Source: Corallococcus exiguus (GTDB lineage Bacteria > Myxococcota > Myxococcia > Myxococcales > Myxococcaceae). Taken from it: a stretch of 63,187 nt of DNA. Under the pieces are notes generated by a model. It saw nothing but the letters and a program-made list of their open reading frames with translations, had not been told where the DNA came from and did no database searches. The position numbers and the translations under genes were made by a program. The DNA lies in NCBI RefSeq assembly GCF_012985275.1, contig NZ_JABEKY010000003.1; one strand, 5' to 3'. This document shows positions 46,763-63,187 of the stretch, piece by piece (position 1 is the stretch's first letter; each line of letters opens with the position of its first letter).

Positions 46763-48430
46763 TCACGGCAGGGGCACGTAGCGCAGGGGCGCCTCCCGCT
46801 GCGGCAGGCGCACCTCCAGCTCCACCACGTCCTCCGCGCTCCAGACGGCGAACAGCTCCACCAGCCGGCCGCACAACAGGTCCACCAGCGGCAACAGCGA
46901 CGCGTCCATGGGCCCGAAGCCCAGCTGGTACACGTACTTGAAGCCCGCGGCGCTCCGGGCGAAGGGCTTGGACTTCACGGACACCTCCGTGAGGGACGGC
47001 AGCAGATCCCGGAAGTGCCGCTGCGTCCGCACGCCCAGCACATCCAGGAGGAACAGCAGGTCCTCGCGCCCCAGGAACCGCTGCGTGCGCAGCGCCAGGA
47101 GCTGCAACAGGGCCTGCTGCCCGTGCTCCACCGGGTTGTCCCCGCCGGGCGCCACCGCGCCCACCAGGCTCCACGGCACGCCTTCCAGGAAGCGGTCCGC
47201 CAGCACCGGCCGGTAGCCCCGCGCATCGAAGCGCGGCGGCAGCGGCTGATGCCACAGGCCGTCCACGCCCAGCCGCACCGGCTTGAGGAACGCGTCCGGC
47301 ATGTCCAGCGCCAGCCACGACGTGCGCGCCAGGGCCTGGCCTTCGTGCTCCAGCTCGTACGTGTCCGCGCCTCCGGAGATGGCTCCAGGGCGCAGGGGCA
47401 CCATGCCCTTCGGGGTCAGCTGGTACACGCCCGTGGCAGCGTTCAGCCGGAAGCCCATGGACGAATCCGGGTGCTGCACCGCGTGCCGCTCCTTCGTGCC
47501 GTCGTGATCCACGGGCGCCGCCATGGCGCGCTGCAGGTTCACCACCGGCACCGCGTGCGCCACGAACGAGTCCGGCCCCACCACCAGCTCCGACGGCCAG
47601 CGGCCCGCCAGGCGCAGCGTCAGGGTGAAGCCCTGCCAGTTGCGAGGGGCCGGCGGGATGCGGGCCTCCAGGAACAGCTCCTGCTGCGGGAAGTGCAGCA
47701 ACTGCCGCAGCCGCTGCAGCGGGTGTTCCGACGCCTCGCCATCCGCCGCCACCGGCCGGGGCGAGCCAAAGCGCACCGGGCCCGAGTGCGCGTCGAAGGG
47801 CTTCACCTCGTGCTCCATCGCCTCGTCGTCGAAGCTCACGGTTGCGGAGCGCACGGCGCTCTTCAGCTGGAAGTACACCGCCAGGGACGCCCGGAAGTCG
47901 TTGAGGTGGTTGATGTGCAGCCGCACCTCGCCCGGTGAATCGTTGCGCGGGAAGCCGCCCTCGAAGACGAACCGCAGGAGCGCGCCGTCCTCGCCCTGGC
48001 GCTCCAGCCGCGCCTGGGTGAGCCGCACGGGCAACAGCCGCAGCGGGGCCAGGGTGCGCAGGGAGAGCGGCCCGGTGGGACCGCCGCCCAGGCCCGGGTT
48101 GAGGAGGAACGGCGTGCCCCGGGGCAGCTCCGCGGCGTCCACGAAGCGCGCGTCCGGCTCCGCGCGGAACATGGCCATGGCCGGAATGGGATTGAGCAGG
48201 TAGGCGAAGTGCTGCTGGAACAGCCGCAGCGTGCTCCGCTCCAACGCGCGCTGCCCTGCCCGGCGCGTGCGCGCGGTGAACAGGGCCATGGCCTCCGTGA
48301 GCCGCCGCACGTCCGCGTCCTCGCCGTCCAGCGGCGCGGAAGGGTGCAGGGCCGTGTAGCCCAGGCGGAACTTCTCCAGCGCCTGGAGTTCCTCCAGGAA
48401 CGACGCGTAGAGCGCTTCATCCATCCGCAT
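46763..48430 (-). CDS. tssF: type VI secretion baseplate protein TssF
   Basis: MRMDEALYASFLEELQALEKFRLGYTALHPSAPLDG...DVRRLTEAMALFTARTRRAGQRALERSTLRLFQQHFAYLLNPIPAMAMF matches the TssF N-terminus. Confidence 0.85.
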   Translation of the reverse strand: MRMDEALYASFLEELQALEKFRLGYTALHPSAPLDGEDADVRRLTEAMALFTARTRRAGQRALERSTLRLFQQHFAYLLNPIPAMAMFRAEPDARFVDAAELPRGTPFLLNPGLGGGPTGPLSLRTLAPLRLLPVRLTQARLERQGEDGALLRFVFEGGFPRNDSPGEVRLHINHLNDFRASLAVYFQLKSAVRSATVSFDDEAMEHEVKPFDAHSGPVRFGSPRPVAADGEASEHPLQRLRQLLHFPQQELFLEARIPPAPRNWQGFTLTLRLAGRWPSELVVGPDSFVAHAVPVVNLQRAMAAPVDHDGTKERHAVQHPDSSMGFRLNAATGVYQLTPKGMVPLRPGAISGGADTYELEHEGQALARTSWLALDMPDAFLKPVRLGVDGLWHQPLPPRFDARGYRPVLADRFLEGVPWSLVGAVAPGGDNPVEHGQQALLQLLALRTQRFLGREDLLFLLDVLGVRTQRHFRDLLPSLTEVSVKSKPFARSAAGFKYVYQLGFGPMDASLLPLVDLLCGRLVELFAVWSAEDVVELEVRLPQREAPLRYVPLP

Positions 48431-48433
48431 GGC

Positions 48434-62000: not shown

Positions 62001-62770
62001 CCTTCCGCCAGCCGTTCCTCGCGGTGCGCGACCTGGGGCAGCGCGAGATTGAGCGGACCCTGGAGCGGCATTGGGACGACGCCTCCAGTCGGTTCCTGCG
62101 TCCGCTGCTGAACCGCTATCCGTTCACGCCGGACGCATCGCAGGAGGTGGATCCGGGAGACCTGGAGGTCCTGCGCAAGCAGGACGGAGCGTTCTGGGAG
62201 TTCGTGACGCGGGTGCTGGCGCCGGTGTGCGAGGAGCGAGGCTCGGAGTGGGTGCCGCGAGGCGCGCTCCAGTCCCGGCTGTCGTTGCCGCAGGGGATGT
62301 TGCCCACGCTGGGGAGGCTGTCGCGGCTGGCCCGCATGTTGTGGGACCCGGAGGGAAGGCCCCGGCCCCTGATGCTGCAGGTGATGCCGTTGCCGCTGCC
62401 GAAGGCACCCACGCAGGGAAGCTTCGTGACGCTCGGTTCGCTGAAGTGCGGCAAGACGACGTTCCTCGCGTACAACCAGAGTCCGACGTGGCAGGAGTTC
62501 CCGCTGGCGTGGTGGGACCAGCAGACGGCGTCGCTGATGCTGGAGGTACGGGCGCCCGCGGACCAGTCGGTGCAGTACGCGTCGCTGGAGAAGTCCCGTT
62601 CGGCATGGAGCTGCTTCCGGCTGCTGGAGTCATCGCAGTCCACGGAAGACCCGCAGCACCGCCGTTGGTCGTTGCGAGCGCGAGGAGCCACCGCCACGGA
62701 CGGGGTGATGGACCTGCGCTTCGGGCTCAAGGGTGAGCCCTGGATCCCGTTCCGCGAGGTGCCGCGATGA
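59069..62770 (+). CDS. tssM: type VI secretion membrane protein TssM (IcmF-like)
   Basis: N-terminal TM helix (ALLVLALLAIGIPLFLVW). Walker A VVLGPAGAGKS. About 1230 aa, the size of IcmF. Confidence 0.9.
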   Translation: MDVIKKLTAFIPPKWKPYALLVLALLAIGIPLFLVWRAKRKSAPAGGAAAPEPLAKNRLRKVREKFLAGLPLRHRVAVRDLPGVVVLGPAGAGKSRLIELDLDWKRQARQFLPSLLTDSLLQVYLGADVVAQEVSPQLLEDESPQAREALRRLWKDSFGGGQQALAVLVLDARWLQDTPPDEVRRAAQLLRGKLNLLAEVRGGAFETRVCLTHLDEREGYADFAKLLRAHHVPLRFPLPPPGQEPKLGSLLKAQEQYLALGLTALPVESFERLERFYSEGHAPFEALSRFVTALMEGQTLAYAPTLATVSLSSADKDARDPDVLSVSAEASTAKAVHERYMHTHLRRAVLLGLAFALPLLAAYGHFAWRLGQARTRVQRFEDMVQRMRDQGQAVSGVAVQEPVLAAGQSLDSLWRAMNAWPLLRYSFTGAREDLRQRLARGIREAHIRPALEKCHRQPDTCRPEQVVYLLATLHGSREEPLGQLVLSSLKTRPTWSFVSEGSEAESPGDVAALEAGRTWVTAVGLNESLVADYVVMSNPPWSAPDTPEASWARWPFPEPLTLEAQLMPWQAHLRRLQDLLGNRAVEPRELERLDAELESMQDERRRLQALLDDSARFSSLPRALELLAASEARVDTSRFRGIPSTLKTVAWINDHRDALTNVLRMEEEAYLGVKAVQKMTVAELLVRDGLWLPGNGPAVLQVPVLQSTFEFRPKDGSRLLHQALLRYHEKTGRLPFGVVEGEEAVASRGGATLAADRLEFDTRLRPLVDEFTTRIKGAGLPVEEVSQRQEHVRRKVNQFAFQYRNRLFQRVSTYRFQAVIPALLSEELSRLTQPSSELVDMLRDVAQGVALEPLDGPFYESLRNAVAPFKPIATVMKPDETGNYTALNPYRALVAQMSDELNAVPRQGVVPAEATASLNGGLATGSAQPAGGAAKLPELLTPLGRLAFAMMLEDDTSYLRKVDAWLDQQGLIGELRQPFRQPFLAVRDLGQREIERTLERHWDDASSRFLRPLLNRYPFTPDASQEVDPGDLEVLRKQDGAFWEFVTRVLAPVCEERGSEWVPRGALQSRLSLPQGMLPTLGRLSRLARMLWDPEGRPRPLMLQVMPLPLPKAPTQGSFVTLGSLKCGKTTFLAYNQSPTWQEFPLAWWDQQTASLMLEVRAPADQSVQYASLEKSRSAWSCFRLLESSQSTEDPQHRRWSLRARGATATDGVMDLRFGLKGEPWIPFREVPR

Positions 62771-63187
62771 AACCGTGGGCAAGCTGCATCCCCCTGGCGC
62801 TGTGTTTCCTGGCCGCATGCCAGCCGAGCACGCTTCACCTGAGCGTGAAGGCGCCATCCGGGACGAACCAGGGCCGGCCGCTGTACATGCTGGTGCGCAA
62901 GGTGGACCCGAAGCAGTTCGCCGTGGAGTCCTACGGCGAGGTCTCCGCGCGAATCTTCCAACCGGACGCGGACGTGCTGCTGTCCGCGCTCATCTATCCG
63001 GGCACGCTGCAGCGCATGAAGGTGCCTCTGCCGGAGAACGCGCCGGTGGCGGTGTCGTTCCTCTTCACCGCGCCGGACGGCACCTGGCAGCAGTTCGTCA
63101 ACACGCCCACGCCCGGCTCGCTGGACATCGAGCTGCTCGAAGGGCGCATCCGCACGGGAACGCAACCTGCGGCGCCCAATAAAGGCG
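62767..63187 (+). CDS. tssJ: TssJ-like lipoprotein (3' partial)
   Basis: ATGA overlap with the tssM stop. Lipoprotein signal MKPWASCIPLALCFLAAC with lipobox LAAC. Small beta-rich protein; runs off the window end. Confidence 0.55.
   Translation, partial: MKPWASCIPLALCFLAACQPSTLHLSVKAPSGTNQGRPLYMLVRKVDPKQFAVESYGEVSARIFQPDADVLLSALIYPGTLQRMKVPLPENAPVAVSFLFTAPDGTWQQFVNTPTPGSLDIELLEGRIRTGTQPAAPNKG

Follow-up and report, generated by a model that had tools for sequence, protein, structure and literature searches.

What kind of type VI secretion system (T6SS) is encoded in a 63,187-nucleotide stretch of Corallococcus exiguus (contig NZ_JABEKY010000003.1, assembly GCF_012985275.1), here called the window? 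An earlier note, made from the sequence alone, had listed a T6SS core gene set there, with genes in both orientations and in an atypical order, and had treated it as a scrambled version of the canonical system. Genes were called from the pattern GC1>GC2 with high GC3 (GC content at the first, second and third codon positions) and then checked against the family libraries Pfam and NCBIfam, and every gene on that list has a counterpart among our calls. On the minus strand, starting at 55929 and ending at 46763, run tssB, tssC, a 215-aa gene, an IglI-family gene, a 314-aa gene, a gp25/TssE gene, a 543-aa gene and tssF, with a 199-aa gene on the plus strand between the 215-aa and IglI-family genes. 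Divergently, on the plus strand from 56240, follow tssK, a 192-aa DUF2345-like gene, dotU/tssL, a 106-aa open reading frame (ORF), tssM and the start of a lipoprotein gene. We propose that this cluster is a complete, selectively maintained T6SS belonging to a sister lineage of the Francisella T6SS-ii, and we consider this reading probable.

To place the cluster among its relatives, species-representative genomes were scanned with TssK. The scan recovered loci in C. coralloides (complete chromosome), C. aberystwythensis, C. carmarthensis, C. praedator, C. terminator, a Myxococcaceae metagenome-assembled genome (MAG), Archangium lansingense, Vitiosangium and one distant MAG of 48% GC. The related loci compared with the window carry the labels L001, L002 and so on to L027. 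Across the Myxococcota loci the gene order is the same: in C. coralloides, four other Corallococcus species, the Myxococcaceae MAG, Myxococcus hansupus (complete genome), Archangium and Vitiosangium. The separation of tssG from tssF by tssE and a vgrG-type gene, already remarked on in the earlier note, is thus real and conserved in relatives, and the arrangement as a whole is one that a distinct lineage has kept, not a shuffled canonical operon. A paralogous second cluster and more distant relatives carry the same lineage-specific genes.

Affinity to Francisella shows in the sheath. TssB and TssC score above the cut-offs of their NCBIfam models (see the table) and also match PF05591, PF05943 and PF18945. 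When TssC was compared with all PDB chains, Francisella IglB scored highest (420 bits), ahead of VipB of V. cholerae (359), TssC of M. xanthus (344) and the P. aeruginosa protein (334). TssB likewise matched IglA (96.9 bits) better than M. xanthus TssB (58.6) or VipA (57.9). M. xanthus, to which the earlier note had pointed as the comparison, does have homologous sheath proteins, but those of Francisella are nearer. The same affinity is more marked when viewed from Francisella: IglB is 41–43% identical to the sheaths of the window's clade (372–413 BLAST bits) but only 31–35% identical to nine T6SS-i sheaths (229–286 bits). A TssC tree combined IglB and VipB, both rebuilt from alignments, with nine T6SS-i sheaths, which came from plasmid records, and five locus-derived relatives. 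The unrooted split that unites IglB with the clade was present in 100/100 neighbour-joining bootstraps, and IglB is sister to the clade, not nested in it. Counted on a rooted tree, where the root divides this branch in two, support was 60%; the full figure is the unrooted count. Viewed from the window, the gap is small, since its TssC is 42% identical to IglB and about 40–41% identical to the best T6SS-i sheaths, as would be expected if the clade evolves slowly and the Francisella branch fast.

The spike tells a similar story. The gene labelled vgrG in the earlier note encodes a 543-aa protein without a match in Pfam or NCBIfam. A profile of 36 homologues matched one PDB sequence only, Francisella PdpA (E 2.9e-5). 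An AF2 model of the protein (pLDDT 86, pTM 0.80) gave PdpA-VgrG complexes as its top three Foldseek matches (E 5e-25, TM 0.66–0.68), followed by VgrG and the spikes of extracellular contractile injection systems (eCIS) at E 1e-19 to 1e-16, among them Afp8, Pvc8 and the contractile injection systems (CIS) of Algoriphagus and Anabaena. The vgrG label was therefore right at the level of fold, and the protein is more precisely a PdpA-like hub. Among 1.84 billion proteins its family makes up 477 clusters at 50% identity, with members almost all from metagenomes. Many of these metagenome hubs have C-terminal extensions (about 640, 740–970 or about 1,350 aa), which suggests ‘evolved’ hubs with effector domains; the window copy is unextended.

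The gene that the note had called needle-like turns out to be a small VgrG of the beta-helix only: the profile of this 192-aa protein aligned solely to the C-terminal beta-helix of CIS and T6SS spike proteins (E 3e-5 to 2e-4). The window thus has the two-gene spike, PdpA hub plus small VgrG, that has been solved in Francisella (PDB 6u9e-g). Scans of the family libraries found no signature of a single-chain gp27-gp5 VgrG in the cluster. At the tip, a DUF4280 PAAR-like protein, whose homologues in other loci are 127–128 aa long, is without the extension that IglG has at its N-terminus.

Two further proteins point toward Francisella. The first is an IglI-family protein, whose homologues already bear that name at NCBI and in UniRef; some of them carry PF06812 (ImpA_N), and it is TssA-like as judged from these family matches. 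The protein is 100% identical to one from C. exiguus, and the TssM of the cluster is found on C. exiguus contig JABELA010000341, in agreement with the source of the window. The second is the lipoprotein encoded after tssM. Domain PF22361 (IglE_N) was detected in this gene in L001, L011, L017 and L027, and its full length is 170 aa in L002. TssM itself has two hydrophobic segments and the Walker A motif GPAGAGKS. Between dotU and tssM lies the 106-aa gene, and a homologue or same-sized gene occupies that position in nine other loci (L002, L004, L005, L007, L008, L013, L014, L016 and L017). The four copies that were read share a C-terminal LEDxLEA(L/F) motif (LEDVLEAL). The protein has no match among NCBIfam or Pfam families and may be an extra membrane-complex or baseplate-docking subunit.

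Of the baseplate proteins, TssK, TssE and TssF look canonical. TssF matched TIGR03359 (E 2e-23) over its N-terminal half only and gave a faint match to IglH. TssE matched TIGR03357 below its cut-off (E 2e-7), and its homologues are gp25-positive in all related loci. In the PDB, the TssK profile found canonical TssK chains only and did not match IglD. The 314-aa protein that the note had called TssG is a probable TssG: it has no Pfam or NCBIfam match, but the only PDB matches of its profile at E≤1 are two TssG chains (E 0.06–0.07), through the motif GLxG...PLP...F.HRL, and its positional homologues in L013, L015 and L027 weakly match PF06996. We retain the call at that strength.

The tube was more difficult to assign. 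The earlier note had called both of the ~200-aa genes after tssC Hcp-like, which neither sequence nor structure bore out: PF05638 (Hcp) had no match in the cluster in Pfam scans. The two proteins, here paralogs A (199 aa) and B (215 aa), are 25–27% identical to each other, and both are conserved from Corallococcus to Archangium. Only seven close homologues were found, and an AF2 model from nine sequences had a pLDDT of 38. In L011, L014 and L015 (the distant MAG and two others) only one copy exists, and the resulting TssB-TssC-X-TssK arrangement matches iglABCD of Francisella. Because of their position and size, and the lack of any other candidate in the cluster, we regard both paralogs as candidate tube proteins.

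ClpV, the ATPase that recycles canonical sheaths, is a component that the cluster lacks. In tblastn searches with two in-cluster Clp proteins of relatives, no ClpV/ClpB-like gene was found in the 63-kb window, as the earlier note had stated, nor within 10 kb in six myxobacterial loci. The note had looked to the sequence past the window edge for clpV. In four related genomes (L002 17033–21250, L005, L007 and L008), the 4.3 kb past the IglE-like gene instead hold a protein of >1,400 aa with Ig-like repeats of the HYDIN/ASH/Cep192 type, which could be a surface protein or a substrate. An Hsp100 partner is probably nonetheless part of how the lineage works, supplied from elsewhere in Corallococcus. 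In Francisella the sheath is recycled by ClpB (PMC5481754, as summarised in PMC5924787).

Several observations weigh against placing this cluster beside the Francisella system. Three of the Francisella-specific family models were matched below their curated cut-offs: NF041249 (TssI) by the small VgrG at E 0.003, NF041248 (IglG) by the DUF4280 protein at E 3e-12 and 46 bits against a cut-off of 200, and NF041245 (IglE) by the lipoprotein at 38 bits against 75. TssK, TssE, TssF and TssM, the last with its Walker A motif, look canonical and not Francisella-like. Neither tube candidate resembles IglC or Hcp, with no Pfam, NCBIfam or PDB match from single sequences or profiles. Three distant relatives encode a ClpB/ClpV-type AAA+ protein within the cluster (L011 2–910, L016 14518–16989 and L017 1–1105), so being without ClpV does not characterise the lineage, and ClpB as the sheath recycler of the window's system is an analogy with Francisella only. 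Finally, the TssC tree is a neighbour-joining tree of 16 taxa, with incomplete sampling of T6SS-i subtypes and without T6SS-iii, T6SS-iv or the second Francisella island.

On a rival reading, the cluster is instead a divergent canonical T6SS-i with shuffled genes, whose ClpV, Hcp and full-length VgrG lie elsewhere in the genome, and its likeness to Francisella reflects T6SS-ii being only a fast-evolving offshoot within T6SS-i. The canonical matches of TssK, TssE, TssF, DotU and TssM, the slight margin by which the window TssC is nearer to IglB, the Clp genes of the relatives and a published tree that nests T6SS-ii in T6SS-i (PMC13098142) all agree with such an origin. We nevertheless think it unlikely. 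Seen from IglB, the clade is clearly the nearest group, and the split that joins them was recovered in every bootstrap. A split spike with a PdpA-like hub, an IglI-family protein and an IglE_N lipoprotein are common to the cluster and Francisella but absent from canonical clusters, and the cluster shows no signature of a PF05638 Hcp or of a gp27-gp5 single-chain VgrG. Strict membership in T6SS-i fails because there is no Hcp signature, the spike is split and the locus has no ClpV; strict membership in T6SS-ii fails because TssK is canonical, the IglG extension is missing and no effectors specific to the Francisella pathogenicity island (FPI) were detected. The cluster is best described as a sister or intermediate variant.

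On the reading that the cluster is sister to T6SS-ii, its parts suggest how the machine might work. The IglE-like lipoprotein, TssM and DotU, probably with the 106-aa protein, would form the envelope complex, as their homologies imply, and TssK, TssE, TssF and TssG a baseplate around a two-piece spike. That spike would be a trimeric PdpA-like hub bearing the separate small VgrG beta-helix, capped by the DUF4280 PAAR-like protein, with the degenerate adenylate-forming (ANL)-fold protein, translationally coupled to the tip gene, probably serving as an adaptor, cargo or assembly factor. The IglI-type TssA-like protein would prime polymerisation of the IglA/IglB-like sheath, which would enclose a tube built from either or both ~200-aa paralogs, and contraction would fire the tube and spike. 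Because the cluster carries no ClpV, the sheath would most likely be recycled by a Clp/Hsp100 unfoldase encoded elsewhere, as by ClpB in Francisella.

The cluster does not begin at tssF, where the earlier note had drawn its boundary (46763), but near 43.6 kb. Three plus-strand genes upstream of tssF, which overlap start-to-stop (ATGA, TGATG), encode a secreted protein, the degenerate ANL-fold protein and the DUF4280 protein, and we include them because they travel with the T6SS in other genomes. The ATGA overlap joins the stop of the 346-aa gene to the ANL-like start, and the TGATG overlap joins the DUF4280 start to the stop before it. The features are collected below.

Table 1. Features of the C. 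exiguus T6SS cluster, in window coordinates.
Feature	Position	Strand	Evidence
346-aa signal-peptide protein, possibly outer-membrane	43656..44696	+	N-terminus ...LSALPAWA/QS; weak NCBIfam TraB-like match, E 1e-5
560-aa protein, divergent adenylate-forming (ANL) fold	44693..46375	+	PF00501 in 6/6 homologues
DUF4280 PAAR-like spike-tip protein, ~128 aa	46375..46761	+	PF14107, E 2e-34
TssF baseplate subunit	46763..48430	-	PF05947, 75 bits
PdpA-like spike hub, 543 aa, VgrG/gp27-gp5 fold	48434..50065	-	profile and AF2/Foldseek matches to PdpA
TssE (gp25-like sheath initiator)	50062..50466	-	PF04965, 28.3 bits (cut-off 27.2)
Probable TssG, 314 aa	50463..51407	-	two weak TssG PDB matches; weak PF06996 in homologues
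IglI-family, TssA-like assembly protein	51421..52422	-	NF041244, 236 bits (cut-off 100)
Tube-candidate paralog A, 199 aa, inverted relative to neighbours	52462..53061	+	position only
Tube-candidate paralog B, 215 aa, directly after tssC	53122..53769	-	position only
TssC, large sheath subunit (IglB-like)	53801..55318	-	TIGR03355, 507 bits
TssB, small sheath subunit (IglA-like)	55369..55929	-	TIGR03358, 147 bits
Divergent intergenic control region, tssB/tssK	55930..56239	.	83% mean identity across six Corallococcus-group loci
TssK baseplate subunit, canonical type	56240..57493	+	TIGR03353, 319 bits; PF05936
Small VgrG, beta-helical needle only, 192 aa	57521..58099	+	DUF2345, E 8e-5
DotU/TssL	58110..58748	+	PF09850, E 2e-16; TIGR03349
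Conserved 106-aa protein between dotU and tssM	58745..59065	+	kept in relatives
TssM/IcmF membrane subunit	59069..62770	+	PF21070, PF06744, TIGR03348, C-terminal part only
IglE-like outer-membrane lipoprotein (TssJ role), cut by window end	62767..63187	+	NF041245, E 1e-9; lipobox LAAC

The second gene of this module encodes the ANL-like protein. PF00501 matches its homologues with a best E of 5e-13, and the family profile matches both the N- and C-terminal subdomains of non-ribosomal peptide synthetase A-domains and acetyl-CoA synthetases in the PDB. The A3 P-loop is found in no member, however, and the A10 lysine is kept only in L011. The gene was present in each related cluster examined for it (L011, L013, L014, L015, L017, L026 and L027), often in the order TssM-IglE-ANL-DUF4280, and encodes 560–600 aa. 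It is likely, from these lost motifs and this linkage, a pseudoenzyme recruited as a part of the secretion system. Francisella has iglF at the corresponding place in its island, and IglF, at 67.9 kDa (PMC5924787), is of similar size. We do not adopt it as the IglF equivalent, as position and size are the only likeness; the IglG N-terminal extension binds IglF (PMC5014421), and the DUF4280 partner lacks this extension, which leaves the equivalence as a lead. As for the 346-aa secreted protein, its weak TraB match is to the N-terminal part of that myxobacterial outer-membrane exchange protein, and a gene of similar size (304–354 aa) lies directly upstream of the ANL-like gene in L013, L014 and L026, a likeness by size and position alone.

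Widening the cluster also changes its distance from the neighbouring eCIS. The eCIS operon reported in the earlier note is real (11404–40271) and encodes a sheath, a gp19 tube, a CIS tube, gp25, baseplate J, P2-I and spike genes. The two systems had been placed within 7 kb of each other, separated only by a DUF1622 membrane protein and a PAS histidine kinase; with the three genes between the kinase and tssF, which had been overlooked, counted as part of the T6SS, they are only ~3.4 kb apart. The eCIS operon includes a 2,569-aa ORF (13170–20876), a 1,416-aa baseplate-J-like protein and a 1,256-aa P2-I/Kelch protein, while the large genes at 7467–11236 and 38313–40271 gave no family match.

Such closeness raises the possibility that the intervening PAS kinase (40956–43442) controls both systems as one co-regulated ‘injection island’. 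In the Myxococcaceae MAG, the genes for the DUF4280, ANL-like and secreted proteins, the PAS kinase, the DUF1622 protein and a 652-aa protein are kept in the same order as in the window, and the 652-aa gene has the length and position of the window's eCIS-side gene. In M. hansupus, however, the 10 kb beyond tssF hold other genes, with no kinase or eCIS, and Archangium and Vitiosangium lack the three-gene module at the position next to tssF. Adjacency inside one genus can moreover be simple inheritance, and we regard a shared island as improbable.

How, then, did a single plus-strand gene come to interrupt the minus-strand series? This gene, which the earlier note had singled out, is tube-candidate paralog A, and its neighbour on the other strand is its paralog B. 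It lies on the opposite strand in five Corallococcus assemblies, the Myxococcaceae MAG (L005/L026) and M. hansupus, and is collinear with its neighbours in Archangium and Vitiosangium. Recurrence in independent assemblies shows that the interruption is an old single-gene inversion and not a misassembly, which the note had named, for 52408–53121, as an outcome that would overturn its account. The odd gene order and the lone inverted tube-candidate gene are thus inherited features of the Myxococcaceae branch of the lineage. Ratios of nonsynonymous to synonymous substitution (dN/dS) between the window and the Myxococcaceae MAG were 0.19–0.71 across all 15 genes compared, and the cluster is, by this measure, selectively maintained. 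An assembly artefact at 52.4–53.1 kb or a decaying, non-functional remnant, which the single opposite-strand gene in an otherwise unidirectional run, a dip in GC from the window's ~70% to 64% at about 52–56 kb and several genes without a family match might suggest, is very hard to credit given the same inversion in the complete C. coralloides chromosome, four other Corallococcus drafts, an independent MAG and complete M. hansupus, the intact ORFs with a coding GC3 pattern throughout the cluster, the dN/dS <1 of every gene (0.25 for the inverted one) and the lack of long inverted repeats flanking that gene when these were searched for.

The paralogous second cluster, L014 (Corallococcus sp. AB011P, contig RAVX01000003.1), is on a single strand throughout. 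Its order is ANL-like, DUF4280, TssB, TssC, a 194-aa gene, TssK, TssE, PdpA-like hub, a 208-aa gene, TssF, DotU, a small ORF, TssM and a 170-aa gene. The last has the position of the IglE-like gene elsewhere and no Pfam match, and the hub is 34% identical to that of the window.

The divergent region between tssB and tssK, which the earlier note had set at 55930–56240, is indeed divergent but ends at 56239 and begins at 55930, because the annotated tssB start is 55929; that start was fixed from the L001 gene call and the intergenic alignment. Aligned across the six Corallococcus-group loci, the region contains conserved blocks, among them an AT-rich one near tssB (GAATTGATAAACCATA, 55966–55981). 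A promoter-like element faces tssK, with TTGACG (56126–56131) and TAGCTT (56150–56155) separated by an 18-nt spacer. A strict scan of the region for sigma-70 promoters and terminators found nothing.

Has this lineage been seen before? TXSScan detected T6SS-ii in Francisella alone (PMC4793230), a 2026 paper states that Francisella ‘uniquely’ has it (PMC12955703), and a 2026 survey that nests T6SS-ii in T6SS-i added one Dongshaea genome (PMC13098142). For M. xanthus a single T6SS of 14 genes has been described (PMC10433427), and a survey of Corallococcus genomes reported that the T6SS is largely absent from most species of the genus (PMC8466578). None of the open-access literature searched describes a T6SS of the Francisella kind in Myxococcota, which is not proof of absence. 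On that search the lineage is undescribed, and the link is not wholly unseen, as NCBI annotation already labels IglI-like proteins.

We give an even chance to a more specific proposal, that the T6SS-ii of Francisella descends from a free-living sister group formed by the myxobacterial clusters and their metagenomic relatives. In that case PdpA, small VgrG, IglI, IglE and perhaps an IglF-like tip partner, proteins regarded as virulence inventions of Francisella, would be ancient structural parts of a widespread environmental T6SS class. The class would have its own non-Hcp tube family, here in two paralogs that are possibly tube and tube initiator, and its own conserved pseudoenzyme of the adenylate-forming fold coupled to the spike tip. 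Francisella IglI, IglF and the equivalents of TssA, TssE, TssF and TssG long lacked assignment. Soil predators that can be cultured and manipulated genetically, and that carry a slowly evolving relative of the system, would help to assign such parts, with IglI corresponding to ImpA_N/TssA-like proteins and PdpA to a generic spike hub, and would make the origin of the Francisella pathogenicity island testable. The cluster also suggests that Corallococcus species do carry a T6SS and that standard T6SS-i/T6SS-ii classifiers likely mislabel or miss clusters of this kind; a hidden T6SS would bear on prey killing or kin discrimination by Corallococcus.

Of the characterised systems, the closest counterpart is the T6SS of the FPI, from the tularemia pathogen Francisella. 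Shared with it are a sheath nearest to IglA/IglB, a PdpA-like hub with a beta-helix-only VgrG, a DUF4280 PAAR-like tip, an IglI-family protein, an IglE_N lipoprotein next to TssM, and a cluster that has neither an Hcp-signature tube gene nor ClpV. In the relatives the likeness extends to gene order: TssB-TssC-X-TssK equals iglABCD, and TssM-IglE-...-DUF4280 mirrors pdpB-iglE-...-iglG. The host of the window's system, however, is a free-living predatory myxobacterium of 70% GC. Its TssK is canonical and not detectably IglD-like, its gp25/TssE and TssF are recognisable, and its TssM has a Walker A motif. The 543-aa hub lacks the extra 280 residues of PdpA, the DUF4280 protein is without the IglG extension, two tube-candidate paralogs stand where Francisella has one IglC, and some relatives encode their own ClpB/ClpV-like ATPase. 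The models for PdpC, PdpD, PdpE and IglF had no NCBIfam match among the proteins of the region.

With the canonical T6SS-i of V. cholerae (VipA/B) and M. xanthus (MXAN_4800–4813, sheath PDB 5urw) the cluster shares the plan of the machine. TssB, C, E, F, G, K, L and M are homologous, and TssK and the C-terminus of TssM score on canonical models. Sheath identity, at 34–41%, is below that to IglB, and the locus has no PF05638 Hcp, single-chain gp27-gp5 VgrG, clpV, fha or ppkA. Its lipoprotein is probably of the IglE type instead of the TssJ type, its order tssG-tssE-hub-tssF differs from the canonical tssE-F-G, and the ANL-like protein, the 106-aa protein and the second tube-candidate paralog are additions. 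With eCIS of the Afp/PVC type, the window's T6SS has in common the contractile principle of sheath, tube and spike, and the hub model aligns to eCIS spikes as well; a two-subunit TssB/TssC sheath, a TssJLM-type membrane complex and TssK set the T6SS apart from those systems, which lack them.

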